This document shows positions 9,183 to 38,210 of a stretch of 64,000 nt of DNA, one piece after another. Origin of the DNA: an uncultured Muribaculaceae bacterium. GTDB lineage: Bacteria; Bacteroidota; Bacteroidia; Bacteroidales; UBA932. Both the position numbers and the translations under genes were made by a program. Numbering within the stretch: position 1 is the stretch's first letter; each line of letters begins with the position of its first letter. The notes beneath the pieces were generated by a model. That model was not told the origin of the DNA. It was given only the letters and a program-made list of their open reading frames with translations, and ran no database searches. The DNA is taken from NCBI GenBank assembly GCA_964383385.1, contig CAYLGW010000006.1, positions 21,113 through 85,112 of the forward strand, written 5' to 3'.

Positions 9183-9291
9183 TATCGGCTTGTAAATAGA
9201 GATTTCAAAAGGATTCCGGCCTGTTCTCCATAAAGATGGAAGAGTGCACCATAACACTATAATCATTATACATAAAATAGATAAGATTAAC

Positions 9292-9987
9292 ATGAAACGG
9301 CCTTATAAATTATTATTTACATTATCAGTTATTTTTTTAATCTATGTGGAGAGCTCTGCGCAGGAGATAAAAAGTGAACGTCTTTTTGAGGGGAAGGGGC
9401 TATACGGCTATATGAACGGAGGCTCCGATTTATACTACGAGTATAATTTTATAAAACTAACAGTTAAAGAGATAGCATATGAAGGGCATAAATACACAAT
9501 GGAAATTTATAGTATGGACTGCCCCAAAAACGCATACGGCCTCTATTCTATTCATATATTTAAACCGTTACGTATAGATACACTCATCGCCGGCGGATTC
9601 GATTGCCTTTCTCAATATGAATTGCAAGCGGCCGCAGGTGATGAATATATTTCAATTGTCTTTACCGAGGGGCTTCCGGCGGCAAAAGGAGCCGATTCTC
9701 TTTTGCTCAAATATCTTAAAAGCAAACAAAACAACTTGCAAAAAGAGACAGATTACAGTTCAACCAAAAAAGAGCTCCTTACAGCTGAAAATAGTCTATT
9801 CCCGCCTGAGATAAGAACTCTCTCGAAGCCCTTCTCAGGCAGATTAAAATATGCAAGGGGACCACTTGCTCTCTCTAATATAGACGAAGAGAGTGCTGAT
9901 AAGTACCCCGACATTGGCACCTCCTACGGGATATGGATCTACTCTGAGCAGGGTAAAGAGGATATTCTAATTAAAGAGAACTTTTAA
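9292..9987 (+). CDS. secreted hypothetical protein
   Basis: The ATG at 9292 gives a clean signal peptide (MKRPYKLLFTLSVIFLIYVESSAQE). The longer ORF-track start at 9244 is a GTG. I recognise no motif. Confidence 0.5.
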   Translation: MKRPYKLLFTLSVIFLIYVESSAQEIKSERLFEGKGLYGYMNGGSDLYYEYNFIKLTVKEIAYEGHKYTMEIYSMDCPKNAYGLYSIHIFKPLRIDTLIAGGFDCLSQYELQAAAGDEYISIVFTEGLPAAKGADSLLLKYLKSKQNNLQKETDYSSTKKELLTAENSLFPPEIRTLSKPFSGRLKYARGPLALSNIDEESADKYPDIGTSYGIWIYSEQGKEDILIKENF

Positions 9988-23247: not shown

Positions 23248-24570
23248 TCACATACCCGTACGGCCCTTAAGACGTCCTGTCTTCATTAAGCCGTCGTAGT
23301 GGCGCATAAGCAAATAACTTTCTATCTGCTGGAGAGTATCAAGAACAACTCCCACAAGAATCAGCAAACTCGTACCTCCATAGAAGTGAGCAAACTGGTT
23401 ATTGACACCCAATTTCATGGCAAAAGCAGGTAAAATTGCTATAATCGCCAAGAAAAATGAGCCCGGAAGTGTAATGCGTGACATCACTGAGTCCAGATAA
23501 TCCGCGGTCTTTTTTCCGGGTTTGATGCCGGGAATAAAACCACCGTTTTTCTTCATGTCTTCAGCCATCATAGTTGGATTAACAGTTACTGCGGTGTAGA
23601 AGTATGTAAAGGCAACTACCATAAAACCGAATATGAAATTATACCAGAAGCCTGTGTAGTTACCTAAAGTGGCGGCTAATCCACGGGTAGCATCAAAGCT
23701 TGCAAATATAAGCGGGAATAACATAAGCGCCTGCGCAAAGATTATAGGCATTACTCCTGCCGCATTAATCTTTAACGGAATATACTGACGTACTCCACCA
23801 TATTGTTTGTTACCAATAATTCTCTTAGCGTACTGTACCGGAATCTTGCGTGTACCTTGCACAAGTGCAATTGTAGCAACAAAGACAAAGAACAAAATAA
23901 TCAACTCGACAATAAGCATCAAGAAACTTCCTGTTGTCTGGTTCATCTTTGTTCCGAACTCCGCTGCAAGTGCATAAGGCAATCTCGCAATGATACCTAT
24001 CATAATGATCAGGGATATACCGTTGCCTAAGCCGCGATCGGTAATACGTTCACCCAGCCACATTATAAACATTGTACCTCCAATAAGAACTATAGTAGCA
24101 AAAAAGTTGAAAGAAAAACCTTTTATTAAGAATGCCGTCTCAGGTAACTGAGCATGAAGGTTTGTAAGATAAGCCGGACCTTGAAGTGCAAGAATCACAA
24201 TGGTTAGATAACGTGTCCATTGATTCATCTTCCTTCTCCCGCTCTCTCCCTCTCTCTGCATTCTCTGGAAATACGGAACCATAATACCCATCAGCTGAAT
24301 CACAATAGAAGCAGATATATAAGGCATAACTCCCAACGCAAAGATGGAGGCATTACTAAAAGCACCTCCTGAAAACATATTCAACAAACCAAGCAAACCA
24401 TTATTTTCTGCTTGAGTCTGTAGAGCATCCAATTGCGTAGGGTCGATTCCGGGAACAACGATAAAACATCCGAGTCTGTATACAAGAATAAGGAGTACAG
24501 TATATACGATCCTCTTCCGAAGCTCTTCAATTTTAAAAATGTTCTTTATTGTATCAATTAATTTCTTCAT
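23248..24570 (-). CDS. secY: preprotein translocase subunit SecY
   Basis: 440 aa, 10-TM pattern, LGVMPYISASIV and GTSLLI motifs. Confidence 0.96.
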   Translation of the reverse strand: MKKLIDTIKNIFKIEELRKRIVYTVLLILVYRLGCFIVVPGIDPTQLDALQTQAENNGLLGLLNMFSGGAFSNASIFALGVMPYISASIVIQLMGIMVPYFQRMQREGESGRRKMNQWTRYLTIVILALQGPAYLTNLHAQLPETAFLIKGFSFNFFATIVLIGGTMFIMWLGERITDRGLGNGISLIIMIGIIARLPYALAAEFGTKMNQTTGSFLMLIVELIILFFVFVATIALVQGTRKIPVQYAKRIIGNKQYGGVRQYIPLKINAAGVMPIIFAQALMLFPLIFASFDATRGLAATLGNYTGFWYNFIFGFMVVAFTYFYTAVTVNPTMMAEDMKKNGGFIPGIKPGKKTADYLDSVMSRITLPGSFFLAIIAILPAFAMKLGVNNQFAHFYGGTSLLILVGVVLDTLQQIESYLLMRHYDGLMKTGRLKGRTGM

Positions 24571-24577
24571 TTTAAGC

Positions 24578-25024
24578 TCAGATTACGTTTACTGTTCCCT
24601 TTGCAGATTCTATCTTTGCAACAGCAGATTTAGAAAAAGCATGAGCAGAAACATTTAATTGCGCCTTCAACTCTCCATTACCCAAAATTTTTACTAAATC
24701 CTTTTTTGAGACCAAACCGTACTCAACCATACTATCAACAGTAATCTCGTTGATTCCGTGTTTCTCGCTCAAATTTTGAAGTATAGAAACATTAATGGCC
24801 TTATATTCAATCCTGTTGGGATTTGTGAATCCATATTTAGGCAGACGTCTTTGAATAGGCATCTGACCTCCTTCAAAACCAGCCTTGCTGGAATATCCGG
24901 ATCTTGATTTGGCACCATTCATACCACGGGTAGATGTTCCTCCATGTCCGGAACCCTCACCGCGACCGATTCTCTTTTCTCTGGAAGTAGAACCTTCTGA
25001 TGGTTTTAATGTATGTAATTTCAT
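24578..25024 (-). CDS. rplO: 50S ribosomal protein L15
   Basis: MKLHTLKPSEGS...RIGRGEGSGHGGTSTRG. Confidence 0.95.
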   Translation of the reverse strand: MKLHTLKPSEGSTSREKRIGRGEGSGHGGTSTRGMNGAKSRSGYSSKAGFEGGQMPIQRRLPKYGFTNPNRIEYKAINVSILQNLSEKHGINEITVDSMVEYGLVSKKDLVKILGNGELKAQLNVSAHAFSKSAVAKIESAKGTVNVI

Positions 25025-25038
25025 CTTTAAATCTCCTA

Positions 25039-25221
25039 TTAGCTAATTTCTTCAACTTTGACAAGGTGTAATACCTTCTCTATCATACCCTTGTTTACAG
25101 GATTCAATTCCATCTCAACAGATTGATTAATTCTCCTGATACCTAAAGATTGTAGGCAAGCAATCTGGCGTTTTGTAGAGCCATTTTTACTTACGATCTG
25201 AGTTATTTTAACTTTTCCCAT
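25039..25221 (-). CDS. rpmD: 50S ribosomal protein L30
   Basis: 60 aa, KVKITQIVSKNGSTKRQ...LGIRRINQ. Confidence 0.93.
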   Translation of the reverse strand: MGKVKITQIVSKNGSTKRQIACLQSLGIRRINQSVEMELNPVNKGMIEKVLHLVKVEEIS

Positions 25222-25233
25222 ATTATTGCCTCC

Positions 25234-25752
25234 TTAACCTTTAAATACTTTATTCATCTGTATACCTCTCAAACCTGCAATTGTATATGCATCACGTAAT
25301 TCCGACAATGCTATTATAGTAGCCTTGACAAGATTGTGAGGGTTTGAAGAGCCTTTTGATTTAGCAAGCACATCATGAATTCCTACCGACTCAAATACGG
25401 CACGCATAGCACCACCGGCCTTTACTCCGGTACCGGGAGCCGCAGGTTTCATAAATACACTCGCACCACCGAATTTTGCTGTCTGCTCATGAGGAATAGT
25501 CTCTTTCTGAACAGGAACTTTTACAAGATTCTTCTTAGCATCCTCAATACCTTTTGATATTGCGGTAGTAACCTCATTGGCTTTTCCCAATCCATATCCT
25601 ACAATACTCTTCTCATCGCCAACAACAACTATTGCAGCAAAACTGAAATGACGTCCTCCTTTAGTAACCTTAGTTACTCTTCTTACGGCTACAAGTCTGT
25701 CCTTTAATTCGAGGTCAGCAGCCTTAACCTTTTTGATATTCATATTTGCCAT
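25234..25752 (-). CDS. rpsE: 30S ribosomal protein S5
   Basis: [32 protein letters not shown] chose the start MANMNIKK at 25752; the longer ORF would overlap rplR. Confidence 0.94.
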
Positions 25753-25759
25753 AGTCAAC

Positions 25760-26122
25760 TTAGAATTTAAGACCACCCTCGCGAGCGGCGTCAGCCAAAT
25801 TTTTAACTCTTCCATGATAAAGGTAACCTCCGCGGTCAAATGCAACCTCGGTGATTCCTTTTGCTATTGCACGCTCAGCAGCAGCCTTTCCAACTATAGA
25901 GGCAACCTCCATATTTGTTTTTCCTTTTGTCTGCTCTGCTATAGTCTTATCCATAGAAGACGCAGCAGCGATTGTTACGCTGTTAACATCATCTATAAAC
26001 TGAACGTATATCTGCTTGTTGCTTCTATATACGCACATTCTCGGTCTCTGGGCAGTACCACTGACTGCCTTACGAATACGGTAATGTATTCTCTTTCTTC
26101 TTTCTATTTTAGTTAATGCCAT
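25760..26122 (-). CDS. rplR: 50S ribosomal protein L18
   Basis: [34 protein letters not shown]...[13 protein letters not shown]. Confidence 0.95.
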
Positions 26123-26136
26123 ATACCTTCTCCTTA

Positions 26137-26697
26137 TTATTTAGCGCTTGCCGACTTACCTGCCTTACGACGTAACTGTTCGCCAACAAACTTAATACCT
26201 TTACCCTTATAAGGTTCAGGCTTACGTAATGAACGTACTTTAGCTGCAACAACTCCAAGCAATTGTTTATCGAAACTTTTTAAAACAAGGACAGGATTAG
26301 CTCCTTTTTTTACAGGCTCAGCCTCAGCTTTAACCTCTTTAGGAATCATGAAATGAATATCATGAGAATAACCCAAACTCATTTCGAGAATCTGTCCCTT
26401 AACTTCAACACGGTAACCGACACCCACCAACTCTTGTTTAATAGTGAAGCCTTCTGAGACTCCTACTACCATGTTGTGGATGAGAGCGCGGTATAATCCA
26501 TGCATAGAACGATGGCGCGGTTGATTCGTAGGTCTTGATACGTTAACTACGCCTCCCTCCAGAGCGACCTTGATATCAGGGTCAACTTTCTGAGACAATT
26601 CGCCCAGAGGTCCTTTGACCTTAACCACATTATTAGCATCAATTGTTATATTGACACTTTGCGGAAGGCTTACAGGTAATTTTCCAATTCGTGACAT
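26137..26697 (-). CDS. rplF: 50S ribosomal protein L6
   Basis: [12 protein letters not shown]...GYSHDI... Confidence 0.95.
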
Positions 26698-26713
26698 TTA
26701 TTAGATATTTAAA

Positions 26714-27121
26714 TTAGTAAACAAAACATAAAACTTCGCCGCCGATATTCATCTCTTTGGCCTCTTTGTCTGTAATAATGCCCTTTGAGGTTGAGATAAT
26801 TGCTATTCCCAAACCATTGAGGACTCTTGGCATTTCATCAACACCGGCATAGTTTCTCAAACCCGGACGGCTGATACGTTTGATCTGTTTGATCGCCGGT
26901 TTCTTTGTCTCAGGATGATATTTGAGAGCTATTTTGATGACATCGTACGGTTTTTCTATAGATGCAGCATCTATAACCTTATAGCTGAGGATATATCCCT
27001 TCTCGTGCAAAACGCGGGTTATCTCCTTTTTCATTTTTGATGCGGGAATCTCAACAGTCTTATGACCTGCTAAGTACGCATTACGAACTCTTGTTAGAAA
27101 ATCTGATATTGGATCAGTCAT
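26714..27121 (-). CDS. rpsH: 30S ribosomal protein S8
   Basis: MTDPISDFLTRVRNA... I chose the start at 27121 rather than the upstream in-frame extension. Confidence 0.94.
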   Translation of the reverse strand: MTDPISDFLTRVRNAYLAGHKTVEIPASKMKKEITRVLHEKGYILSYKVIDAASIEKPYDVIKIALKYHPETKKPAIKQIKRISRPGLRNYAGVDEMPRVLNGLGIAIISTSKGIITDKEAKEMNIGGEVLCFVY

Positions 27122-27202
27122 ATTGATTAAATTTAAATGTACCGACACAATTAAGTGCCCGATATCCAATTGTTAATAATTATTTCACCTGTGTGGTTAT
27201 TC

Positions 27203-27472
27203 CTACCAACTTGCCTTGTGAACTCCAGGAATAAGACCTTTACTGGCCATCTCACGGAATTGAATACGGCTTATACCGAAAATACGCATATATCCTTTTG
27301 GTCTACCGGTGAGTGAACAACGGTTATGCAATCTTGTAGGACATGAATTTTTTGGTAATTTAGCCAATCCGGCATAATCACCCTCTTCTTTCAGCTGTTT
27401 GCGTTTTTCAGCATACTTGGCACATAATTTAGCGCGTTTTACCTCGCGAGCTTTCATTGATTCTTTTGCCAT
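27203..27472 (-). CDS. rpsN: 30S ribosomal protein S14
   Basis: 89 aa, [13 protein letters not shown]...[24 protein letters not shown]...KASW. Confidence 0.94.
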
Positions 27473-27484
27473 TGTATCTCCTTA

Positions 27485-28093
27485 TTATTTCTTGTTATTT
27501 TTAAAAGGCAATCCGAATTCGCGAAGAAGCGCACTTGCAACTTCATCCTTATCGGATGTGGTAACGAATGTTATTTCCATTCCAAAAATTTTGGTAATCT
27601 TGTCGATATCTATCTCAGGGAAAATAATCTGCTCTTTAATACCAAGAGTGTAATTTCCTCTGCCGTCGAATTTCTCATTTATACCATTAAAATCTCTGAT
27701 ACGAGGAAGAGAGACAGTAATAAGTCTTTCCAAGAACTCATACATCTTTGTCCCGCGAAGAGTCACTTTAACGCCGATAGGAGTTCCCTTACGGAGTTTG
27801 AAGTTTGATATATCCTTCTTAGAATATGTCAATACAGCCTTTTGACCGGTTATTACAGAAAGTTCAGTTTGAGCAACCTCAACAAGTTTTTTATCTCCTG
27901 TAGCCTGGCCTACGCCCTGATTGATTGTAATCTTCTCCAATTTCGGAACCTGCATAACAGATTTGAAACTGAAATTTTTCATCATTTTACCTACAATCTC
28001 TTCTTTATATTTTTTCTGTAAGGAAGGAATATATCCCTTAACCTTAACCTGCTCACCCTTCGGTGCTGCAGCTTTTGTCTTCTTTTCTGCCAT
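27485..28093 (-). CDS. rplE: 50S ribosomal protein L5 (with a Lys/Ala-rich N-terminal extension)
   Basis: [28 protein letters not shown]...[10 protein letters not shown]...[16 protein letters not shown]. Confidence 0.94.
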
Positions 28094-28416
28094 TATTTGA
28101 TCTCCTCACCTGATTTTTTAGCATAACGGACTAATTTCCCCTTATCACCTATACGGCGACCTATTTTGGTTGGTCCTCCTTTAGAAGGATCAACTACCTG
28201 TAGATTGGAAATGTGTATTCCTGCCTCTTGTTTGATAATACCTCCCTGAGGATTTTTAGCATTAGGTTTAGTATGTTTACTTACCATATTTAAACCCTCG
28301 ACGATAGCACGAGACTTGTCTGTATCAACCGACATAACTTTTCCGGATTTACCCCTTTCGTTGCCGGCATTTACAAAAACCATATCGCCTTTCTTAATAT
28401 GTAATTTATTATTCAT
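28093..28416 (-). CDS. rplX: 50S ribosomal protein L24
   Basis: [27 protein letters not shown]...; I prefer the ATG at 28416. Confidence 0.93.
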
Positions 28417-28435
28417 AATAATTTCCTCCATTAAA

Positions 28436-28801
28436 TTATAGTACCTCAGGAGCTAATGAAACTATCTTCATGTAATTATCACGCAACTCTCTGGCAACAG
28501 GCCCGAAAATACGTGTTCCGCGAACTTCTCCCTGGTTGTTCAACAGCACACATGCGTTTTCATCAAATCTGATATAAGAGCCGTCCGGACGACGAACCTC
28601 TTTTTTAGTACGAACTACAACAGCTTTAGAAACAGATCCCTTTTTTGCATCTGCGCCCGGGATCGCACTTTTTACGGCGACAACTATCTTGTCTCCTACA
28701 CTTGCGTAGCGGCGGCGTGTTCCGCCCAAAACACGAATACAAAGGACCTCCTTTGCACCACTGTTATCCGCTACCATTAATCTTGACTCTTGCTGTATCA
28801 T
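28436..28801 (-). CDS. rplN: 50S ribosomal protein L14
   Basis: [27 protein letters not shown]... Confidence 0.96.
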
Positions 28802-28803
28802 GG

Positions 28804-29058
28804 CTATTTAACTTTTTCTACAATTTCTATTAATCTCCAACGTTTTGTCTTGCTCAAAGGACGTGTTTCCATAATTCTTACGGTATCGCCCTCACTACAC
28901 TCATTTTTTTCATCATGAGCTACAAACTTTGTGGTTTTATTTACGAACTTTCCGTAAATAGGGTGTTTTTCCTTAGTTTTTACGGCAACAACAATAGATC
29001 TTTCCATCTTGTTACTTACCACTACACCAACTCTTTCCTTACGAAGATTCCTTTCCAT
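28804..29058 (-). CDS. rpsQ: 30S ribosomal protein S17
   Basis: 84 aa, ...[19 protein letters not shown]...HPIYGKF...HDEKNEC.EGD.V.I.ETRPLSK.KRW. Confidence 0.95.
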
Positions 29059-29063
29059 GAGCT

Positions 29064-29264
29064 CTATTTATTATCCTGGTTTTCTAATTGGCTCAACACG
29101 GTGAGCATTCTTGCAATATCTTTCCTTGATTTCTTAATAAGAGAAGTGTTTTCCAAAGGAGAAATTGCATGGTTCAACCTCAATTTGTCCAAAGAAACTT
29201 TCTCGGTTTCTATACGCTCACGTAAATCTTTAGCGGATAGCTCTCGTATTTCTTTAATTTTCAT
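29064..29264 (-). CDS. rpmC: 50S ribosomal protein L29
   Basis: 66 aa, [33 protein letters not shown]. Confidence 0.93.
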
Positions 29265-29282
29265 ATCCCAATCTCCTTTAAA

Positions 29283-29705
29283 TTATTCTTCAACATAATC
29301 CCTACGAATAACGAACTTCGTAGTAATAGGTAATTTCTGGGCACCAAGGCGAAGAGCCTCTTTTGCTATTGCCAATGGAACGCCATCGATTTCTATCAAC
29401 ATTCTACCTGGTGTAACAGGAGCAATAAATCCCTCCGGACTACCTTTTCCTTTACCCATACGTACCTCAGCAGGCTTTTTTGTAAATGGCTTGTCAGGGA
29501 AAATTCTGATCCAAATTCTACCCTCACGTTTCATATAACGAACTACGGCCTGACGTGCAGCCTCTATCTGTTGACCGGTCAACCAGCAAGACTCAAGAGT
29601 CTTAATGCCGAAAGAACCAAAAGCCAACTGGCTGCCTCTGTGAGCCAACCCCTTCATGCGGCCTTTTTGCTGCCTTCTAAATTTGGTTTTTTTTGGTTGT
29701 AACAT
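29283..29705 (-). CDS. rplP: 50S ribosomal protein L16
   Basis: [30 protein letters not shown]... Confidence 0.96.
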
Positions 29706-29792
29706 TGTTTCTACAATTTAACAATAATACTGCTGTATCTAATTCTTTAGTTTTCAAAACTTTAGCTGTAACGGAGCTAAAATTGTGGGCTG

Positions 29793-29800
29793 CAAATATA
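29793..29800 (-). promoter_or_regulatory. candidate Bacteroidota -7 promoter box (TATATTTG) for the rplP-led ribosomal operon
   Basis: TAnnTTTG on the minus strand, 87 nt upstream of the rplP ATG, in the 230-bp AT-rich gap that replaces rpsC. A second match (TAAGTTTG) is at 29887-29894. Confidence 0.3.
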
Positions 29801-29935
29801 CACAAAATATTTTATATGCAAACTATTTCGCATATTTTTTTACAAATTTTGGACGATTTTTTTTAATGTTAAAATTACGATTTTCACAAACTTATGAAAG
29901 TGCAAAAAAACAATGAATGGCCAATTTGGAAAATA

Positions 29936-30853
29936 TCATATCGCTCTGATTCCATACTCGGCGAAGAGTGTTTTTACCTCCTCTACCCTCGCTTCGGAAG
30001 GAGTTGCCAGATCAAACTTTTTACTGTTATATTCGGTACCCAATCTTGAATGCTTGCCCTTTGCTATATCGTGATAAGGGAGCAACTCCACTAAAGGAGA
30101 GGGTCCCGGCAATGAAGAGAGAAACTTAGCTGAAGCAATAATATTGGTATCGTCAGAATTGACCCCCTCTATAAGAGGAATTCTTATTATAAAATCCTTC
30201 CCCATCTCTGCAAGTAACTCGATATTATTATGAATAAGCTTGTTATCAACGCCGGTAAACTTTCTATGTAGAACATTATTCATCAATTTTAGATCTACCA
30301 GGAATAATTCACAATTGGCAGCCACCTCCCTTACAATCTCCTCAGAGGCATATAAAGAGGTATCAACACTTCTGTGGAAAGACTCCTCCCCACACTCCTT
30401 TAAAATTGAAAGAAGGAATTTGGGGTGCATGAGCGGCTCTCCTCCACAAAACGTAACACCTCCGCCAGACTCCTCAAAAAACGGCTTCTCCTTGCGTATC
30501 TCACTCATAATCTGCTCTACAGAATAAATTTTCCCGGCCATCTCCATAGCCTTGGAAGGACACACCTCTGCACACTCCCCGCAACAGACGCACTTCGTTT
30601 TATCTGTCAGTACACCCTTGCCTCCTTTATCCATAGAAAGTGCTCCGTGCCGGCAAACACGAATACAACTACCGCAACCTATACATTTATTAAGGGTATA
30701 CATCTTGCTTTGCGCAGGACTCATCCCCTCAGGATTATGGCACCAAGCACAAGACAAAGGACAACCCTTAAAAAAAAGGGTTATCCTTATTCCCGGTCCA
30801 TCATTTATAGAATATCTTTTGATATCAAAAATATAACTCTCCATCACCTCCAA
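29936..30853 (-). CDS. glycyl-radical enzyme activating protein (radical SAM, two extra ferredoxin-like clusters)
   Basis: CPLSCAWCHNPE radical-SAM triad, then CIGCGSCIRVCRHGA and CVCCGECAEVCPSKA. The ORF-track start at 30853 is a TTG; the first ATG is at 30844. It lies 1 nt downstream of the GRE stop. Confidence 0.88.
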   Translation of the reverse strand: MEVMESYIFDIKRYSINDGPGIRITLFFKGCPLSCAWCHNPEGMSPAQSKMYTLNKCIGCGSCIRVCRHGALSMDKGGKGVLTDKTKCVCCGECAEVCPSKAMEMAGKIYSVEQIMSEIRKEKPFFEESGGGVTFCGGEPLMHPKFLLSILKECGEESFHRSVDTSLYASEEIVREVAANCELFLVDLKLMNNVLHRKFTGVDNKLIHNNIELLAEMGKDFIIRIPLIEGVNSDDTNIIASAKFLSSLPGPSPLVELLPYHDIAKGKHSRLGTEYNSKKFDLATPSEARVEEVKTLFAEYGIRAI

Positions 30854-30854
30854 A

Positions 30855-33266
30855 TCAGAAAGTACTATTCTCCGTTCTCTTTATTATCTCCTCCTGATAG
30901 TCGGTATTCATATCATTAAAATAGTCGGAATAACCGGCCATCCTCACAAGAAGATCCCTGTAATTCTGAGGATTCTTCTGTGCATCGCGAAGAGTTGCAG
31001 TATCCACAATATTAAACTGAATATGGTGACCGTCCATTGCAAAATAACTTCTGATAAGGTGGCCGAACTTAACCAAATCCGACTCTTTCTTTAAAAGATT
31101 AGGAATAAACCTCTGATTCAACAACGTACCACCGGTCTTAGTCTGGTCGAGTTTACCCAAAGACTTTACAACCGAAGAGGGCCCGTGAGTATCACATCCC
31201 TGCGAAGGTGAAGTACCATCGGAAATTGGCAATGAAGCAAATCTACCGTTAGGGGTTGCCCCCATAACTTTACCAAAATAGATATGGCATGTGGTTGAGA
31301 GCATATTCATATGATAATGCCCACCTCTAATATTAGGTTTACCATCTATAACATTAAATAGGTCATTAAAGACCCTGACAGCTATCTTGTCGGCATAATC
31401 ATTATCATTACCAAAAAAAGGAGTGTTATTGATTATTCTCTGTCTGAGCACCTCCATGCCTTTGAAATTCTTGCTCACAGCATCAAGCATCTCATTCATT
31501 GTAAGAGATTTATCATCATATACAAACTTTTTGAGAGCGGCAAAACTATCGGTCACGGTACCGAGACCGGTACATTGTATATAATTGGTATTATATCTCG
31601 CCCCTGAATCATAATAGTCTCTTCCTCTCTTAATGCAATCGTCTATTAAAAGGGAAAGAAAGGTTGCCGGAGCATACTTGGCGAACATACGATCTATATA
31701 ATTACTTACCAGCATCTTCTGAGACACTACATACTCAAGTTGTTTATAGAATGCCTTGTATAGAGAGTCGAAAGTCTTGAATTTCAGAGGATCTCCGGTT
31801 GCAATACTAACTTGCTTTCCCGTAACGGGATCAACACCATTATTCAATGTAATCTCAAGAATTTTAGGAACATTAAGATACCCCGTTAGCAAATAAGCCT
31901 CCTTACCAAACGCTCCAACCTCAATACAACCACTGCAACCACCCTCTCTCGCATCAGCAAGAGTTTTACCCTCTCTTACAAGCTCCTTAACATAACCATC
32001 GGAATTAAAGATAGAGGGATAACCATAACCCTTACGTATTACCTTTGAGGCAGCCATAAGGAACTCATCAGGAGTATTTTTACTTATGTGAACCGAGCTC
32101 CCGGGTTGCAAAATATGCAACTCCTCAACCACCTGTAAAATCAGATAAGAGATCTCGCTAACACCGGTAGAACCATCGGTTTTAACACCGCCTAAATTAA
32201 TATTAGTAAAATCGTTATAGGTACCACTCTCCTTGGCGGTAATACCAACCTTAGGGGGAGCCGGATGGTTATTAACCTTTATCCAGAAACACGATATCAA
32301 CTCCTTTGCCCTCTCCGGAGTAATCGTTCCCTCTTTGAGCTCCTTCTCATAGAATGGTTGTAAATGCTGATCTAAATGACCCGGATTCATCGCATCCCAG
32401 CCATTAAGTTCTGTAATGGTACCAAGATGAGTAAACCAATAGGTCTGCAATGCCTCCCAAACATTGCGCGGAGCATGTGCAGGAACCCATTTACAAACCT
32501 TTGCTATCTCCCTGAGCTCCAACACCCTCGCAGCCTTTTTCTTAGCAACTTCAGAATCTACTCTCTTACCTGCGTTAGAAAGTTCATTCTCTATCTCGGC
32601 GGCCATTTTCTCGGCCAAAACTGCATGTCTCTTTGCAAAAAGAATTGCCGCATCACATGAAATATCCATCGCAGTCAACTCTTCCTGCTTATCAGTAGCC
32701 TCAGGATCATTCATAAAATCAAGAGAGTCGAGCTGTTGTCTAATCTGTCTCTTCAGATCCAACATACCATACCTGTAAATCTTCCCGTCGAGAGCAGTAT
32801 GTCCCGGGGCACGTTGCTCCATAAACTCCGTAAAAAGCCCCGCCTCATACAAAGAACGCCAACTCTCAGGAACATGATTAAAAATCCTCTCTCTCTGCGT
32901 TCTTCCTGTCCAATATGGTATTACCTTTTTACGATAAATCTCAATCTCCTCATCGCTTATAGAATATCTCTGCAGCTCTCTCTTCCTTAGCACATTAAAA
33001 TCATCAACCGAATGGCAGGTAAGTTCAGGAAAGGTAGGAACAGCCTTCGGAACAGGACCGCGCTCACCCACTATAAGCTCCTGATCACCTATATATATAC
33101 TCTTCTTTTTACATAAATTATAAAAATTGAGTGCACGCAACACGGGAATAGGGTACTTGCCCTCATTCTTTTTATAAAAATCGGTTTCGAGCAAAGCACG
33201 CTCTATTGACAACGACGGCAGTGCGTTCACCGACAACTCTCTTAAATATTTTATTCTATCATTCAT
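30855..33266 (-). CDS. glycyl radical enzyme, dehydratase/lyase (PFL2-type) class; substrate unassigned, hydroxyproline-dehydratase-like is one hypothesis
   Basis: 803 aa. C-terminal glycyl-radical motif LLVRMAGYSDYF. Thiyl loop GGCSGCIEVG (Cys-x-Glu, not the Cys-Cys of PFL). FTEFMEQRAPGHT and NGWDAMNPGHLDQH motifs. Confidence 0.85.
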   Translation of the reverse strand: MNDRIKYLRELSVNALPSLSIERALLETDFYKKNEGKYPIPVLRALNFYNLCKKKSIYIGDQELIVGERGPVPKAVPTFPELTCHSVDDFNVLRKRELQRYSISDEEIEIYRKKVIPYWTGRTQRERIFNHVPESWRSLYEAGLFTEFMEQRAPGHTALDGKIYRYGMLDLKRQIRQQLDSLDFMNDPEATDKQEELTAMDISCDAAILFAKRHAVLAEKMAAEIENELSNAGKRVDSEVAKKKAARVLELREIAKVCKWVPAHAPRNVWEALQTYWFTHLGTITELNGWDAMNPGHLDQHLQPFYEKELKEGTITPERAKELISCFWIKVNNHPAPPKVGITAKESGTYNDFTNINLGGVKTDGSTGVSEISYLILQVVEELHILQPGSSVHISKNTPDEFLMAASKVIRKGYGYPSIFNSDGYVKELVREGKTLADAREGGCSGCIEVGAFGKEAYLLTGYLNVPKILEITLNNGVDPVTGKQVSIATGDPLKFKTFDSLYKAFYKQLEYVVSQKMLVSNYIDRMFAKYAPATFLSLLIDDCIKRGRDYYDSGARYNTNYIQCTGLGTVTDSFAALKKFVYDDKSLTMNEMLDAVSKNFKGMEVLRQRIINNTPFFGNDNDYADKIAVRVFNDLFNVIDGKPNIRGGHYHMNMLSTTCHIYFGKVMGATPNGRFASLPISDGTSPSQGCDTHGPSSVVKSLGKLDQTKTGGTLLNQRFIPNLLKKESDLVKFGHLIRSYFAMDGHHIQFNIVDTATLRDAQKNPQNYRDLLVRMAGYSDYFNDMNTDYQEEIIKRTENSTF

Positions 33267-33278
33267 AGTATTATAAAG

Positions 33279-34388
33279 TTATTGTTTTACCCCTCCGATA
33301 TGAAGTATTTCGCCCCATACTCTCATTAAATTACCTCCCCAAAAAAGTCTTAAATCCTCCTGAGAATAACCTCTCGAAAGTAACTCCTTTGTAAGAGATT
33401 TCATCTTAGAGCAATTTTCCATCCCCACTACACCGCCACCTCCGTCAAAATCGGTACCTATCCCCACATGCTCTATACCAACAAGATTCTTCACATAATC
33501 TATATGATCGGCAAGTATAGAGACACCTACCTGAGACTTTGGCAAAGAGGAGAGAAAATAGCGGCCGGTAGCTACCTGTATAAGACCTCCGTGCTCAGCA
33601 ATAGCCACCATTTCCGAATCTCTCAAATTACGCGCATTATGCTTAATGTTCCACACTCCGGAATGAGAGGCAATAATGGGAGCCTTACTATATTTTAAAA
33701 CATCCATCAAGGTTGCAGAGGAGGAGTGGGAAACATCTATAATCATCCCAACCTCGTTCATTCTTTGTACAACTCTCTTGCCAAACTCAGTAAGACCTTT
33801 GGTCTTCTCCCCCGGACGAGTTTCGGTGGAAGATTCGCAAATAAGATTATTCTTACTGTGACAAAGAGTAATATACCTTACACCCATATTGAAAAATTCA
33901 TTAATACGCTCAACCTTATCACCTATTCCGTAACCATTTTCGATTGCCATTACAGCACCCCGTTTACCGCTCTTTTTCATAGAGAGCAGTTCCTTAGGAG
34001 AACGGATAAGCACCAGGCTGTCTTTATGCCTCTCTTCATATTTCATAAAGAGCCGTAACTCGTTTTTACACTGTTCATAAACAGAATCGAGCGAAGGCAG
34101 ATCATTCGCTTTTTGCTCCAAATAGACGGCAAAAAAAGCGGCATCCAACCCTCCTTCATACATCTTAGCAATGCTGACCTGCCCTGTACTCAGAGAATTA
34201 TGCCTGCTCGGATGAAGCAAATACGACTCCGAATCATTATGAGTATCGATAGAGATAATTTCTTTATGTATTCTGTTTACCGTCTCGTCGGAGATAATCT
34301 TACGTTGTGCATAAAGCAGCTCTGTATTTGAATATGTTAAAAACAGAGCTACAGACAAAAACAATAATATGTAATTACATTTTTTCAT
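33279..34388 (-). CDS. secreted membrane-dipeptidase family (M19) metallopeptidase
   Basis: Signal peptide (KKCNYILLFLSVALFLTYS), zinc-ligand context SIDTHNDS, ...DVSHSS..., IGTDFDGGGG. I prefer the ATG at 34388 (the ORF-track start at 34391 is a TTG). AAGGAG lies 8 nt upstream. Confidence 0.8.
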   Translation of the reverse strand: MKKCNYILLFLSVALFLTYSNTELLYAQRKIISDETVNRIHKEIISIDTHNDSESYLLHPSRHNSLSTGQVSIAKMYEGGLDAAFFAVYLEQKANDLPSLDSVYEQCKNELRLFMKYEERHKDSLVLIRSPKELLSMKKSGKRGAVMAIENGYGIGDKVERINEFFNMGVRYITLCHSKNNLICESSTETRPGEKTKGLTEFGKRVVQRMNEVGMIIDVSHSSSATLMDVLKYSKAPIIASHSGVWNIKHNARNLRDSEMVAIAEHGGLIQVATGRYFLSSLPKSQVGVSILADHIDYVKNLVGIEHVGIGTDFDGGGGVVGMENCSKMKSLTKELLSRGYSQEDLRLFWGGNLMRVWGEILHIGGVKQ

Positions 34389-34416
34389 CAATTGAACTCC
34401 TTAATTAAAAAATAAA

Positions 34417-35745
34417 CTATTTCATCACTCTTCTTAACAATAGCAACAACACGGAAATTACTATACAACCAATCATGAGCCACGAACCCATACCATTGAC
34501 AAACATTATAGGAACAAATGTTATAAGCAAAATCTCCACAGGTGCTATCGGCAAATAGGCAATGGCATAATCCTCCATTGTCTTGCTTTTAAATTTAGGG
34601 TCTACTATTCTCAACAGTGCTATACCCATTGCCATTGTCCCTGTCCACCATCCCCACGCAAAAATAGAGCGTTCGAACCAGTACGAGCTGAGAAGTTTTC
34701 TTCCCAAATAAAATGTTATAAAAAACACAACTACTACTCCAAATAATATTAATAAAGCAAGAGGAGCCGCATATTTTAACACAACATCCAACTTAATTGA
34801 GGCAACTCCGCAAACCACAAGAAGATCCGTAAAGAAACTGCTCAACCTCTGTGTAGTCTTCACACAAATATAATCGCTTACTTTTGTGGCATCGAATAGT
34901 TTTTTCAATATTAAACCCGCAACAAAAGCACAACTGAATACAGGCAGATCAAGTTTGGGATAGTAGTATTTTACCCCCATACTCATCAAATAACCAAAAA
35001 ACGCCGCAACAAAGACCAACGCCATATGAAATGTCAGAGAATCAATAGAAATTGAAGAGGTTGTAGCCTCGCCTATAGATTCTCTATTATTCTTTGGAAC
35101 CAAACCGTTTTTCAATTCATTCGGCAGTTCAGAAAAATCCGTAATAAATGAGGTATATTTTTTTCTGGCAGCAATTTTAACTATAACAAGTCCACCAATA
35201 ATCGCAAGTATAATTCCTACAGTAGCAGTTGTCATGCCAAGACTTCTTGCCTCATCCCAACCCAAATTTTCAAATGCTGAACCTACTGCAGCTGCAGTGC
35301 CGTGTCCGCCATAAAAACCGGTAGGGAGCATTATTCCAAAGGCTTCATTAAGATTAGGCCAAATAGCCATCAGTACATAAATACCAAAAACACCCACAAT
35401 ACCCCATTGAAGAAGCATTCCCACCTGAGCATAAATCCATATAGGACCTACTCTGTGCGTCACCTCTTTAAAGGAAACATTAGGAGACGAAAAAGCAAGA
35501 GAACCAAACACAAGCGCAATCATTATTGCCGAATATGAACCTAAATTCCCGGAAAGAGGCAGATAGTCAAGCCCGTTCGGGCCAAATGTAAGTCCCAAAA
35601 GACCGGCAATAAGGCTGGGCGGGATAAAGAGTTGTTGTATAAGTTTTATTTTAACCCTAAGAAGTTTTGAGAAAAGAAGCAGAGCGCACACAATTCCAAA
35701 ATCAGTAAAGAGAGACCATGGCGTAAAATTGGAAAGATCGAACAT
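34417..35745 (-). CDS. GltS-family sodium/(glutamate-like) solute symporter
   Basis: 442 aa polytopic protein. Collinear with E. coli GltS, including the GFYGGHGTAAAVGSAFENLGW segment (GltS: LSGGHGTGAAW). Confidence 0.75.
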   Translation of the reverse strand: MFDLSNFTPWSLFTDFGIVCALLLFSKLLRVKIKLIQQLFIPPSLIAGLLGLTFGPNGLDYLPLSGNLGSYSAIMIALVFGSLAFSSPNVSFKEVTHRVGPIWIYAQVGMLLQWGIVGVFGIYVLMAIWPNLNEAFGIMLPTGFYGGHGTAAAVGSAFENLGWDEARSLGMTTATVGIILAIIGGLVIVKIAARKKYTSFITDFSELPNELKNGLVPKNNRESIGEATTSSISIDSLTFHMALVFVAAFFGYLMSMGVKYYYPKLDLPVFSCAFVAGLILKKLFDATKVSDYICVKTTQRLSSFFTDLLVVCGVASIKLDVVLKYAAPLALLILFGVVVVFFITFYLGRKLLSSYWFERSIFAWGWWTGTMAMGIALLRIVDPKFKSKTMEDYAIAYLPIAPVEILLITFVPIMFVNGMGSWLMIGCIVISVLLLLLRRVMK

Positions 35746-35809
35746 TTTAGTATAAATTAGGTTAGGTAAAGTTTTTAAAAAAAATGGAATGTTTTTCGCA
35801 TTTGAGTGT

Positions 35810-35817
35810 CAAAGATA
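35810..35817 (-). promoter_or_regulatory. candidate -7 box (TATCTTTG) for the transporter-dipeptidase-GRE-activase operon
   Basis: TAnnTTTG on the minus strand, 64 nt upstream of the symporter ATG. Confidence 0.35.
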
Positions 35818-35829
35818 ATAAAAAGGAAT

Positions 35830-35837
35830 TAATTTTG
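35830..35837 (+). promoter_or_regulatory. candidate -7 box (TAATTTTG) for the DUF4294-like gene
   Basis: TAnnTTTG 12 nt upstream of the ATG at 35850. This supports the shorter start. Confidence 0.35.
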
Positions 35838-35849
35838 GGGCACATTTAT

Positions 35850-36515
35850 ATGCAAAAATATTTAGTCATATTATTTTTAACACTTACTTTGCCGTTACAG
35901 GCTCAGCAGACAAAACAGCAGAGAGATTTGCAGGAGATGATCCCAGATGTATTGCCGCCGGCAAAAGGAGGACTGATGGGGTTCAAGGTTGAGATGGGCG
36001 ATACGGTCTATTTCGACAAACTCGCTCCCGTCTATGTTTTCGATAGACCAAACCCTTGGACAAAGAGAAAACAATGGAGAGACTACTACAAGACAGTCTA
36101 TAATTTTAAAAAAGTGTATCCTTACGCACTCCTTGCCAAGAGAATAATACTTGAAGCCGACAGTACAATTACCAACTCAAATTTCACGAGAAGAGAACGT
36201 GACAAATATGTAAAACAATATGAGAAGAGACTCTTCAAAGAGTTCGAAAAACCTCTTAAAAACCTAAGTTTTTCACAAGGAAGACTCCTACTTAAATTGA
36301 TAGACAGAGAGGTGGGACAAACCTCCTTCTATATAATAAAAGGTTATAAAGGAACCTTGACAGCAGGTTTTTGGCAATTTGTCGCAAAGATATTCGGTTC
36401 CGATCTCAAAAAGCCATATGATAAATACGGTGAGGATAAAGTTGTTGAGGAACTCGTCAAAATGTATTACAACGGCTCCTTCAATAGCCTATACTACTCA
36501 ATGTTCAGAGAGTGA
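35850..36515 (+). CDS. secreted DUF4294-like protein
   Basis: Signal peptide MQKYLVILFLTLTLPLQAQ. The LSFSQGRLLLKLIDREVGQTSFYIIKGYKG segment resembles DUF4294 (recollection-level call). Confidence 0.5.
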   Translation: MQKYLVILFLTLTLPLQAQQTKQQRDLQEMIPDVLPPAKGGLMGFKVEMGDTVYFDKLAPVYVFDRPNPWTKRKQWRDYYKTVYNFKKVYPYALLAKRIILEADSTITNSNFTRRERDKYVKQYEKRLFKEFEKPLKNLSFSQGRLLLKLIDREVGQTSFYIIKGYKGTLTAGFWQFVAKIFGSDLKKPYDKYGEDKVVEELVKMYYNGSFNSLYYSMFRE

Positions 36516-36590: not shown

Positions 36591-38210
36591 CTATAATTGT
36601 ATAAAATCCATCTCAACACTCCTTTCCTGAGCGGTAAAAGCTATGCGAATCCCCTTCCCGGCGGCATATTTTTCATAACTCTCACATATCATTGAGATGA
36701 ATCCCGCAATATCTCCGTGCTTCCACTGCGGGTGAGCCACTCCGGAGGTTATTTTTGCAATATCGAGTATCTGATTAATAAGAACTAAAAGATTACTGCC
36801 GTGAGTCATAATATCCATCACATCCCTGCGTATACTCTCATCTCCCCCAGCCTGCTCAATAATATCTTGAGCCGCAGACCGAATAATAGTGAGCGGTGTA
36901 CGAAACTCATGCGTTATATTGGTAAAAAATAGGTCTTTAGACTTTTGCATTTCGTTCTGCAAAAGATACCTACGCCTGCGACCTCAGGAGAGAAACAGAA
37001 GAAATGCAATCAGGAAGATGAGCATAATCACAATAAATATTGAAACGATCATCACCACTCGCGTATGAGCCTGCTCCTGCTCATTCTTCAGAATAAGTTC
37101 CTCATTTTTGTATTTTGCATTGTATTGACTCAATAATTTTTCCAAATCATTGCCATACAATGTATCTTTTATCTCCGCGTAGCGGTGCAGGTGCCGTATA
37201 GCCTCTTCCTTATCAGTATGATTTAAAGCCTCATATAGGCCATATCTGGATTTACTTTCATTATAGAGATCTCTACGCTCTTTAAAAACCGCAAGTGCAT
37301 CTCTAAAATACTGTACAGCATCTCTATAATCCCCTCTTTTATTAAGCAAAGTGCCCATTTGATTATAACAGATGCTTAACGATTGCAGATTGCCCTCCTC
37401 TTTAAGAACAGGAATAGCCTTCAATAAAGAGAGTTCTGCTGCCTTACTCTCACCCAAAGCTATTTGGGCAGTAGCCATTTGAGAGAGACGGATCGCCGAT
37501 TTCCCTCTATTCCCCATCTCAGAATCTATATCATAAGCCTTTTGAGCATAGGAAAGAGCCTTTTTATCCTCCCCGAGACTGTGATAAATTCCCGAGGCCA
37601 TCCCATATTGAATAGCCACACGCCTGGTATCACGAACAGCCTCACTATTACAGATAGCTTCGAGAATATATTTTTCACCCTCCTTGGGCTCTTTAGCTGC
37701 AAGGTAAATACCCGCTATCGTATTTAATGTACTGCTTATTCTACTCTTATCACCAATCTTTTTATTTGCCTCCAAACTTTGCTTGGCATAGCTTAAAGCA
37801 AGTGTATAGTCGGCTTTACGAAAATAAAGTATTGAGAGCAAATTTTCACAATCGCTCCTCCGCATTTGATTCTGATTTTTTATGCATAAAGGTAAAGCCT
37901 TCTCCGAATAATTAATGGCTTTATCATACTCTTGCAGGTCATACAAATATTCTCCGGCCCAGTACCAAACAAACATCTTTATACTGTCCTAATTACTTTT
38001 AGAATTGAATTGAATGAGTTTTTCCGTGAATTCCTCGTTATGAAGCAACACAAAGAAATTGTTTGCCACGGTTATCTTCTCCTGGCGGCTCTTACTTGAG
38101 TCAAATTTTTGGAGTAAAGAATCAATATTATATGCTCCGGCCTCCGAGCCGGCAGATATAATAAAGAGGTATAATATAATATATTTAACTCTTCTCATCA
38201 TAAAAATCAA
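36591..38210 (-). pseudogene. decayed TPR-TM-HisKA sensor histidine kinase (two in-frame stops; HATPase domain missing)
   Basis: Three ORFs (37989-38210, 36984-37976, 36591-36962) share one frame. They are separated only by a TAG (37989-37991) and a TGA (36984-36986). Read-through gives ...FNSKSN*DSIKMFVWYW... and ...FLLFLS*GRRRRYLLQNEMQKSKDLFFTNITHEFRTPL. The frame ends right after the HisKA region with no ATP-binding domain. Confidence 0.8.

Follow-up and report, generated by a model that had tools for sequence, protein, structure and literature searches.

A predicted trans-4-hydroxy-L-proline dehydratase and its activase as an accessory module behind an older carrier–dipeptidase pair in a Muribaculaceae-like bacterium

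Four co-directional open reading frames on the minus strand of the window (the whole 64,000-nucleotide stretch of DNA that was analysed) encode, in order, a membrane carrier, an M19 dipeptidase, a glycyl radical enzyme (GRE) and a radical-SAM activase (Table 1). The arrangement raises the question of which substrate the GRE acts on, and whether the two genes in front of it have any bearing on the answer. The original prediction had described the operon as one with no assigned substrate. When the listed start codons were used, the genes were separated by 25 nt (carrier to M19), 12 nt (M19 to GRE) and 1 nt (GRE to activase); the gaps of 1–28 nt described previously were reproduced when the ATG at the second codon of the M19 gene was taken as its start. 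The four genes, their motifs and a promoter-like box, TATCTTTG, were all found as claimed.

Table 1. Features of the operon and its flanks, with positions numbered from the first nucleotide of the window.
Feature	Position	Strand	Basis or remark
Conserved ~230-nt region upstream of rplP	29706..29935	-	Downstream boundary of the HypD-activase module
rplP (ribosomal protein L16)	29283..29705	-	Opens a ribosomal protein run; syntenic anchor
Radical-SAM activase, 305 aa	29936..30853	-	Start TTG 30853 or ATG 30844
GRE, predicted HypD orthologue, 803 aa	30855..33266	-	NF043068; PDB 6vxc; residue mapping
M19 zinc dipeptidase (renal-dipeptidase-type), 370 aa	33279..34391	-	PF01244, 2.7e-95
Polytopic membrane carrier, 442 aa	34417..35745	-	Putative divergent GltS/ESS member, via orthologues
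TATCTTTG promoter-like box	35810..35817	-	Matches the Bacteroidota -7 consensus TAnnTTTG
DUF4294 gene	35784..36515	+	PF14127, 1.3e-49; divergent, upstream syntenic anchor

The TATCTTTG box was located 65 nt upstream of the carrier ATG, inside a divergent intergenic region of ~100 nt that is shared with the DUF4294 gene, the true start of which is probably near 35850 (MQKYLVILF). As the window contained 98 matches to TAnnTTTG where 68 were expected, a single match is weak evidence for a promoter, and only the position of the TATCTTTG box supports such a role. A motif scan found no minus-strand TAnnTTTG box inside the M19 gene, and hypD had no promoter-like box of its own; one promoter upstream of the carrier would probably give a transcript covering all four genes. 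The only strong hairpin (30757–30788) fell inside the activase reading frame, over the codons for ITLFFKGCP, and was not accepted as an internal terminator. An Rfam scan of the operon for riboswitches and other known RNAs returned nothing at thresholds. The operon was flanked by DUF4294 at one end and by ribosomal protein genes, starting with rplP, at the other; as stated earlier, neither microcompartment shell genes nor genes for handling aldehydes or alcohols were adjacent.

Analysis of the GRE revealed both Pfam domains of the superfamily, PFL-like (PF02901, 1.2e-224) and Gly_radical (PF01228, 7.4e-31), and its translation contained the glycyl radical motif LLVRMAGYSDYF and the Cys loop GCSGCIEVG. 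Membership of the superfamily is defined by a PFL-like barrel and a C-terminal glycyl radical domain with an RVxG[FWY] motif; here VRMAGYSDYF aligned Gly778 with Gly765 of HypD, the trans-4-hydroxy-L-proline dehydratase. The Cys-x-Glu signature of the 1,2-eliminases was present in GCIEVG, in which Cys447 and Glu449 aligned to HypD Cys434 and Glu436. The domain searches and translations thus bore out the earlier gene calls and motifs and the placement in the Cys-x-Glu eliminase clade. The protein also passed the NCBIfam equivalog for trans-4-hydroxy-L-proline dehydratase, NF043068, at 1143.8 bits, a small margin of 44 bits over the cutoff of 1100. The next equivalog, NF048011, fell short of its cutoff of 1000 at 532 bits, and the generic subfamily model TIGR01774 scored 578 bits. 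The best solved relative was Clostridioides difficile HypD (6vxc, 955.8 bits), followed at 506 bits by a glycerol dehydratase (1r8w); the GREs that act on other hydroxyproline isomers scored 407 (HpzG, 8iof), 406 (HpyG, 8id1) and 375 bits (HplG, 7vua).

An alignment of the GRE with 6vxc was used to map the 15 catalytic or hydroxyproline-contacting positions named in the HypD structure paper (PMC7077986). This showed that 14 of the 15 were identical, the sole change being Val to Ile at the middle residue of the CXE loop. All 11 of the hydroxyproline-binding or essential residues Phe152, Arg156, His160, Trp277, Asp278, Lys326, Ser334, Asp339, Phe340, Tyr450 and Thr645 (HypD numbering) were identical, and so was every residue that binds the carboxylate, amine or hydroxyl of hydroxyproline or stacks against its ring. 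His160, Asp278, Ser334, Asp339, Phe340 and Glu436 are essential in HypD (PMC7077986). The key residues of the GRE are Gly778 (radical), Cys447, Glu449, His156, Asp291, Ser347, Asp352, Phe353, Tyr463 and Thr658. The Cys-Ile-Glu loop was also observed in a HypD from Gelidibacter (L035), which had no carrier or dipeptidase nearby. The original prediction had offered hydroxyproline dehydratase as one hypothesis, and the equivalog score, the match to 6vxc and the residue mapping identify this as the correct one. It had also allowed that the GRE might prove to be simply a known enzyme; comparison with the characterised GREs placed it within the HypD family, above the NF043068 cutoff and with 14 of the 15 named residues kept, and the heading of no assigned substrate falls with this result.

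If the GRE works as its C. difficile homologue does, the activase would use a [4Fe-4S] cluster and SAM to generate the radical on Gly778. The radical would then pass to Cys447, which would abstract a C5 hydrogen of trans-4-hydroxy-L-proline, and Asp291, Glu449 and His156 would help the 4-hydroxyl to leave as water. The product, pyrroline-5-carboxylate, would be converted to proline or glutamate by enzymes encoded elsewhere.

The activase carried the Radical_SAM and Fer4 families (Pfam), and the radical-SAM triad (CX3CX2C, CPLSCAWC) and two ferredoxin-like CX2CX2CX3C motifs (CIGCGSCIRVC and CVCCGECAEVC) reported earlier could be read in its translation. It scored 325 bits against the general GRE-activase model TIGR02494 (cutoff 174). 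The activase equivalog for trans-4-hydroxy-L-proline dehydratase, NF043069, was its top-scoring equivalog at 340 bits, below the cutoff of 425, and the gene was assigned as the HypD activase from its adjacency to hypD.

Comparison with C. difficile HypD and its activase (6VXC/6VXE; NF043068, NF043069) showed the same domain architecture, with glycyl radical and Cys-x-Glu loops, shared active-site residues as above, and an adjacent activase with two auxiliary cluster motifs. The window GRE differed in being only ~51% identical, in encoding CIE rather than CVE, and in a clade-specific insertion of ~17 residues near positions 226–250; the window activase, moreover, fell below the equivalog cutoff, and the locus had no adjacent gene for pyrroline-5-carboxylate reductase (proC). 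This last absence had been noted originally and extended to the whole window, in which no proC homologue was found. There is therefore no sign of a Stickland-type hydroxyproline-to-proline route at this locus. Huang et al. 2018 (PMC6219649) described HypD from Bacteroides and Parabacteroides, in most cases with no proC next to it. In the literature consulted, no assayed HypD from Bacteroidota was found, and the activity of the window enzyme is predicted from homology. The window enzyme belongs to the same phylum-level clade as those of Bacteroides vulgatus and Parabacteroides distasonis, in which proC is likewise absent and the neighbourhood heterogeneous (PMC6219649); HypDs of Parabacteroides, Tannerella, Odoribacter and others were 69–72% identical to it. 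What sets the window apart from these gut Bacteroidetes is the DUF4294-rplP site beside the GltS-like carrier and M19 genes, which was seen only in Muribaculaceae-type genomes. The enzyme is thus a known one, and only its local setting is unusual.

The M19 protein matched PF01244 with 319.6 bits over residues 41–360, and the ligand-type residues H51, D53, E151, H222, H243 and D314 were invariant in 19 M19 orthologues. Its N-terminus, MMKKCNYILLFLSVALFLTYSNTELLYA/QRK, resembles a type-I signal peptide as judged by eye, in keeping with the earlier description of a signal-peptide-bearing M19 peptidase, and the enzyme is presumed to be periplasmic. The M19 dipeptidases of known structure (human DPEP1, 1ITQ; Streptomyces Sco3058, 3ID7; Aspergillus GliJ, 5LWZ; a Pseudomonas enzyme, 3B40) share its fold, and their His/Asp/Glu/His/His/Asp ligand-type positions are kept in the window protein, which differs in having an apparent signal peptide and in the position of its gene beside a symporter gene. 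The similarity is distant, and substrate preference is not transferable from these enzymes. The best solved relative, at 153 bits, was an uncharacterised 'probable dipeptidase', too uninformative for a substrate to be assigned from solved structures. No alignment column separated the HypD-linked from the unlinked M19 orthologues, and a specificity shift in the former was rejected.

Pfam searches with the full-length and the truncated window carrier gave no match at a threshold of E<=10, and the two relatives nearest to it likewise failed to match PF03616. Orthologues 71–73% identical to it, in contrast, matched PF03616 (Glt_symporter) with 68–70 bits (cutoff 26; 6e-19 and 1.5e-19) over ~320 residues, and the source records of the 2235 carrier homologues found name them sodium:glutamate symporter. 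With this indirect support, the carrier is putatively placed in the GltS/ESS (Na+/glutamate symporter-like) family as a divergent member. The GltS-type label given to it earlier holds for its orthologues but does not register for the window protein itself.

The neighbourhood of hypD was compared across the 80 best-matching HypD loci, which were mostly from Bacteroidota. The activase gene was adjacent to hypD in at least 67 of these and was its only constant neighbour; when the neighbours were clustered, every other gene was limited to eight loci or fewer, and a four-gene operon conserved across Bacteroidota was rejected. An E. coli ProC sequence was used as a probe with L16 as a positive control, and detected no proC within 10 kb of any of the 80 loci, which agrees with the literature on Bacteroides and Parabacteroides HypD (PMC6219649). 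The carrier and/or the M19 gene occurred near HypD in only ~5 of the 80 (L007–L010 and L012, all Muribaculaceae-type), leaving ~75 without the pair. Conversely, the pair was found without HypD in 80 of 80 metagenome carrier loci. The order DUF4294, carrier, M19, rplP, again without HypD, was present in L001–L006, L167–L170 and 22 metagenome loci, and the closest HypD-less relatives had carriers 89% and 78% identical to that of the window. The DUF4294 gene held the same position in the loci of relatives. The region upstream of rplP, which carries its own TATATTTG box at 29793–29800, followed the activase in the window and L009 and followed M19 in the HypD-less L169 and L167, with 81% mean column identity across both junction types. 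Among relatives, some loci carried only the pair, others only the module, and others both in rearranged form. HypD identities tracked those of the carrier and DUF4294. As the pair is widespread at the same DUF4294-rplP site without HypD, the comparison shows it to be the older element, and HypD with its activase to be an accessory module that was acquired or lost at that one position downstream of the pair. The module lies between the M19 stop codon and the conserved rplP promoter region.

Our preferred reading, which we hold at roughly 80%, is that the GRE and activase form the anaerobic HypD and HypD-activating enzyme system of a Muribaculaceae-like bacterium, and that this two-gene unit is an accessory gained or lost at a single location, downstream of a pair that was there first. 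Because the carrier was in place before the GRE, it is uninformative about what the GRE acts on. Judged from its sequence, the GRE is an ordinary copy of a known gut-bacterial enzyme; since it appears to be known HypD, behind an older pair that is usually without it, the operon is no evidence of new chemistry. Most likely, the pair has a job of its own, independent of HypD, in which dipeptides would be hydrolysed in the periplasm and the released amino acid then taken up. Any supply of hydroxyproline by the pair would be an add-on and not the reason for its existence; that such a dipeptide-to-hydroxyproline route operates at all is unlikely.

A stronger form of that route, a dedicated salvage operon in which M19 cleaves Xaa-Hyp (such as Pro-Hyp), the carrier imports hydroxyproline and HypD dehydrates it, seems improbable to us, although the tight co-directional packing, with hypD lacking a promoter box and only 12 nt behind the dipeptidase gene, is what it would predict. 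The four-gene order recurred in L009 and L171/L172, M19 was directly upstream of HypD in L012, and in L007 and L010 the pair and the module stayed within 3 kb despite an inversion. The order persisted in lineages with carriers only 75% identical, and this recurrence, together with the linkage through an inversion, may result from selection that keeps the genes together and not from shared ancestry alone. Co-occurrence was confined to one family-level lineage (the window, L009, L171/L172, L007 and L010, and partly L008 and L012). Recurrence, which had been proposed originally as a test, was found within Muribaculaceae-type loci only, and the far commoner unlinked states of both HypD and the pair do not fit partners that depend on one another. 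The M19 alignment, with no column setting HypD-linked enzymes apart, also counts against a dedicated operon, as does the relationship of the carrier to glutamate carriers. No characterised M19 enzyme is known to act as an Xaa-Pro or Xaa-Hyp dipeptidase, an activity found instead in the M24B prolidases. Elsewhere in Bacteroidota, HypD adjoins other peptidases, several of proline-specific types: M24B with AMP_N in 8 loci (as the immediate upstream gene in 4–5), S9 DPP-IV in 4, M1 in 4 and M28 in 5. According to PMC6219649, the enzymes that free hydroxyproline for HypD in the gut had yet to be identified, and Pro-Hyp is cleaved poorly by host peptidases; both points favour such a supply. That the Muribaculaceae M19 frees hydroxyproline from collagen-derived Xaa-Hyp (Pro-Hyp), with the GltS-like carrier as the first identified hydroxyproline importer for HypD, is more doubtful still, and we found no literature linking M19 or Muribaculaceae to HypD. 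If true, HypD beside the pair here, and beside M24B, S9, M1 or M28 elsewhere in Bacteroidota, would point to a general peptide-to-hydroxyproline supply logic.

A neofunctionalised HypD relative acting on another substrate, whether the anionic one proposed originally as new chemistry or another hydroxyproline isomer, is very improbable, and a new substrate was rejected on the equivalog score, the order of the PDB matches and the mapped residues: the ~51% identity to the assayed enzyme, the small equivalog margin, the insertion and a GltS-like carrier in the same probable transcription unit might suggest it, but the hydroxyproline-binding and ring-stacking residues are all identical, the Cys-Ile-Glu loop also occurs in the Gelidibacter HypD that lacks both partners, the GREs for other isomers score under half of HypD, and the carrier is older than the GRE at the site.

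With the GRE and activase read as a HypD system, to leave the enzyme labelled as unassigned would be an error, since standard annotation would give HypD. Few glycyl radical enzymes are as abundant in gut metagenomes as HypD, which ties the breakdown of collagen and plant glycoproteins to microbial proline and glutamate metabolism. The comparative result is of modest value: within a single family of gut Bacteroidales, the HypD-activase module is cleanly present or absent at one and the same position behind the conserved pair. The M19, M24B and S9 peptidases found beside HypD are concrete candidates for the bacterial release of free hydroxyproline.

Analysis of the open reading frames, Pfam domains and translations confirmed the four co-directional genes, the domains and the quoted motifs of the original prediction. 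The carrier, M19 dipeptidase, glycyl radical enzyme (GRE) and activase genes were separated by 25, 12 and 1 nt. The GRE contained PFL-like and Gly_radical domains with the motifs VRMAGYSDYF and GCIEVG, the dipeptidase a Peptidase_M19 domain, and the activase Radical_SAM and Fer4 domains with one CX3CX2C and two CX2CX2CX3C motifs. On visual inspection the dipeptidase has a signal peptide, which suggests that the enzyme would be periplasmic. The candidate promoter box, TATCTTTG, was found as claimed and in a fitting position; as TAnnTTTG, the Bacteroidota -7 consensus, is common in the window (98 observed versus 68 expected), it counts as evidence by position alone. No minus-strand TAnnTTTG was found anywhere within the M19 gene and the GRE gene starts 12 nt past it, so the simplest reading of the layout is that all four genes are transcribed as one unit from the carrier promoter.

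Coordinates of the features discussed, in window positions
Feature	Position	Strand	Remarks
TATCTTTG box	35810-35817	-	65 nt upstream of carrier ATG
Membrane carrier	34417-35745	-	442 aa
M19 dipeptidase	33279-34391	-	370 aa
GRE	30855-33266	-	803 aa
Extra residues in GRE	roughly 32520-32590	-	residues ~226-250; from alignment to C. difficile HypD
Radical-SAM activase	29936-30853	-	305 aa
Terminator-like hairpin	30757-30788	-	13 bp, T-rich tail
rplP upstream region	29706-29935	-	~230 nt; own TATATTTG box, conserved leader
Ribosomal protein run	23248-29705	-	begins at rplP (L16)
Two adjoining ORFs	36591-37976	-	330 aa and 123 aa
S9 DPP-IV-type peptidase	53974-56325	+	~20 kb from hypD

The hairpin flagged as terminator-like is internal to the activase gene; its codons read ITLFFKGCP and directly precede the radical-SAM cysteine triad. 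The hairpin probably reflects the coding sequence, but could attenuate transcription.

The GRE scored 1143.8 bits against NF043068, the NCBIfam equivalog for trans-4-hydroxy-L-proline dehydratase (HypD; cutoff 1100). The remaining equivalog models gave at most 532 bits, each far below its own cutoff, and the generic PFL2/glycerol dehydratase subfamily model gave 578 bits. A search of all PDB sequences revealed C. difficile HypD (6vxc/6vxe) to be the top match at 955.8 bits (~51% overall identity), followed by glycerol dehydratase (506 bits) and by HpzG (8iof, 407 bits), HpyG (8id1, 406 bits) and HplG (7vua, 375 bits), which are GREs for other hydroxyproline (Hyp) isomers. The catalytic and substrate-contacting residues listed in the HypD structure paper (PMC7077986) were mapped to the GRE through the alignment. 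Phe152, Arg156, His160, Trp277, Asp278, Lys326, Ser334, Asp339, Phe340, Cys434, Glu436, Tyr450, Thr645 and Gly765 (C. difficile numbering) were all identical, corresponding to F148, R152, H156, W290, D291, K339, S347, D352, F353, C447, E449, Y463, T658 and G778 of the window protein. The sole mapped difference was Val435, in the middle of the CXE motif, which is Ile in the GRE; this CIE loop also occurs in a Gelidibacter HypD (locus L035) with no carrier or dipeptidase nearby. Compared to C. difficile HypD, the GRE has 17 extra residues, seen as two adjacent alignment gaps, in the stretch NELSNAGKRVDSEVAKKKAARVLE, which is presumed to lie on the protein surface. HypD was ~803-812 aa long in the Muribaculaceae-type loci and in L029 and L031, and ~786 aa in other Bacteroidota.

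The original prediction had left the operon without a substrate; the model score, the PDB ranking and the retained residues together supply one, and the hydroxyproline route that it had offered as one hypothesis was right for the enzyme. New chemistry is not supported, as the GRE is a member of a characterised family and retains the residues that contact the substrate, an outcome that the prediction had itself set against its proposal. The activase cleared the cutoff of the general GRE-activase model; its top specific model was the HypD activase at 340 bits, below the cutoff of 425, and we therefore assign it as the HypD-activating enzyme by its adjacency to hypD. On these comparisons, GRE and activase appear to be the known system of HypD and its activase, in a Muribaculaceae-like genome. 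By homology, the activase would use SAM to generate the Gly778 radical, the Cys447 thiyl radical would take the C5 hydrogen from Hyp, and Asp291, Glu449 and His156 would assist the loss of water to give pyrroline-5-carboxylate (P5C). HypD of gut Bacteroidetes is already known, and a neighbouring P5C reductase gene (proC) is present for only a minority of hypD genes (PMC6219649).

A search that took one genome from each species yielded the best 80 HypD loci (69-95% identical), mostly from Bacteroidota (Parabacteroides, Tannerella, Odoribacter, Lutibacter, Draconibacterium and others); the closest (95%) was in an uncultured Muribaculaceae MAG. Their neighbours were compared by tblastn with the window proteins and by grouping every gene up to 7 kb away into clusters. 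The activase was the only constant partner (at least 67 of the 80 loci), and none of the 80 had a proC homologue within 10 kb. A carrier was near HypD in L007-L010 alone and an M19 gene in L007, L009, L010 and L012 alone. These five loci shared a Muribaculaceae-type backbone of FtsX, DUF3098, BacA, metallophosphoesterase, DUF4294, a variable cassette, rplP, rpmC, rpsQ and onward. The cassette comprised carrier, M19, HypD and activase in the window and L009; inverted M19 and carrier, then DUF4294, HypD and activase in L007 and L010; carrier only and HypD in L008; and M19, HypD, activase, ZIP and FeoB in L012. Other forms of the cassette were two unknown genes and HypD (L013, L014), and HypD, activase and an unknown 770-aa gene (L057, L065). 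HypD ~70% identical to the Bacteroidota type was also found on a 3-kb contig of a MAG labelled Methanothrix sp. (L026) and a 5-kb contig of Agathobaculum sp. (L040), which are likely binning errors of an archaeon and a Firmicute bin rather than horizontal transfer. In the window, the stretch from the metallophosphoesterase gene to DUF4294, which is empty in relatives, contains two adjoining ORFs that resemble a sensor kinase in split or truncated form. The first encodes a 330-aa TPR-like protein with a transmembrane segment at its end and the other a 123-aa fragment with a HisKA-like H-box (ITHEFRTPL).

The window carrier had no Pfam match, even at E<=10. Its orthologues of 71-73% identity scored 68-70 bits against PF03616 (Glt_symporter), so that the description "GltS-type" holds by transitivity but not for the window protein itself. 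Its two closest relatives, P0001 and P0003 (93% and 78% identical), also lacked a PF03616 match at E<=10, even when shortened, and orthologues of 71-75% identity gave about 70 bits; the missing match in this sub-clade may reflect either an artefact of the HMMER filters or true divergence. Carriers 71-72% identical to that of the window lay in the order DUF4294, carrier, M19, rplP, with the GRE absent. A metagenome scan revealed HypD in none of 80 carrier loci, 22 of which had carrier-M19 on this backbone, with DUF4294, rplP or both as flanking genes. In 36 human-gut loci the carrier was alone, with no M19 gene nearby, and it thus also functions without the dipeptidase. This human-gut orthologue (73% identical; L087-L128) was very abundant; at the one locus examined (L092, 7023-9347) it lay behind an AraC-type regulator and beside MacB/FtsX-type permeases. 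The order carrier-M19-rplP, without HypD, was found in L169/L170 (carrier 89% identical) and L167/L168 (78%), and the full four-gene order again in L171/L172 (75%). The four-gene neighbourhood recurred in L009 and L171/L172; among the 80 HypD loci, carrier or M19 accompanied HypD in only L007-L010 and L012.

That the carrier-dipeptidase pair supplies HypD with dipeptide-derived substrate is possible and testable, and we consider it unlikely. The 12-nt gap and the lack of a TAnnTTTG box within the M19 gene favour it, as does the frequent proximity of other Bacteroidota HypD to peptidases, several of proline-specific types. An M24B peptidase (Xaa-Pro type) with an AMP_N domain was near HypD in 8 loci, in 4-5 of them as the immediately upstream gene; the raw M24B count, uncorrected for kinship, looks higher than chance. 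S9 DPP-IV (4 loci), M1 (4), M28 (5) and S46 (1) peptidases were also found; in Perlabentimonas, HypD, activase, S9 and M24B were consecutive. Examples outside Muribaculaceae are L018 (13316-17014), L035 (2713-8001), L041 (2409-9646), L020/L032/L059 (~8200-9600) and L054, and some loci carry several peptidase types at once. The window also encodes an S9 peptidase, 30% identical over ~800 residues (E 5e-92) to the hypD-adjacent one of Perlabentimonas, which its distance from hypD leaves unlinked. Against such coupling, the pair without the hypD-activase module and the module without the pair are each far commoner than both together. When 19 M19 orthologues were aligned, 58 columns were invariant, ligand-type positions among them, and no column split HypD-linked from unlinked copies; the closest solved M19 structures were distant and gave no functional information. 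Characterised M19 enzymes favour L-Xaa-D-Xaa or Cys-Gly-type dipeptides and are not known to prefer Xaa-Pro or Xaa-Hyp; E. coli GltS transports L- and D-glutamate. These properties suggest salvage of acidic or D-amino-acid dipeptides as another candidate role of the pair.

Across the clade (including L001-L006, L129-L166 and L167-L170), rplP has as upstream neighbours the pair and the conserved region of ~230 nt. Probes for S3, S19 and S10 (E. coli sequences, with L16 as positive control) gave no match in the 64-kb window or L001-L086, so the usual S10...S3-L16 cluster seems to be split before L16 across the whole clade.

The region upstream of rplP was conserved after either the activase or the M19 gene, and the boundaries of the module are thus clean: it starts just past the M19 stop codon and ends just ahead of the rplP promoter region. 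HypD identities tracked those of the carrier and DUF4294 in pairwise matrices, a pattern consistent with a vertically inherited module that has repeatedly been lost, or replaced by recombination, at a single site. The known system of HypD and its activase was inserted downstream of the carrier-dipeptidase pair, which is the older of the two units.
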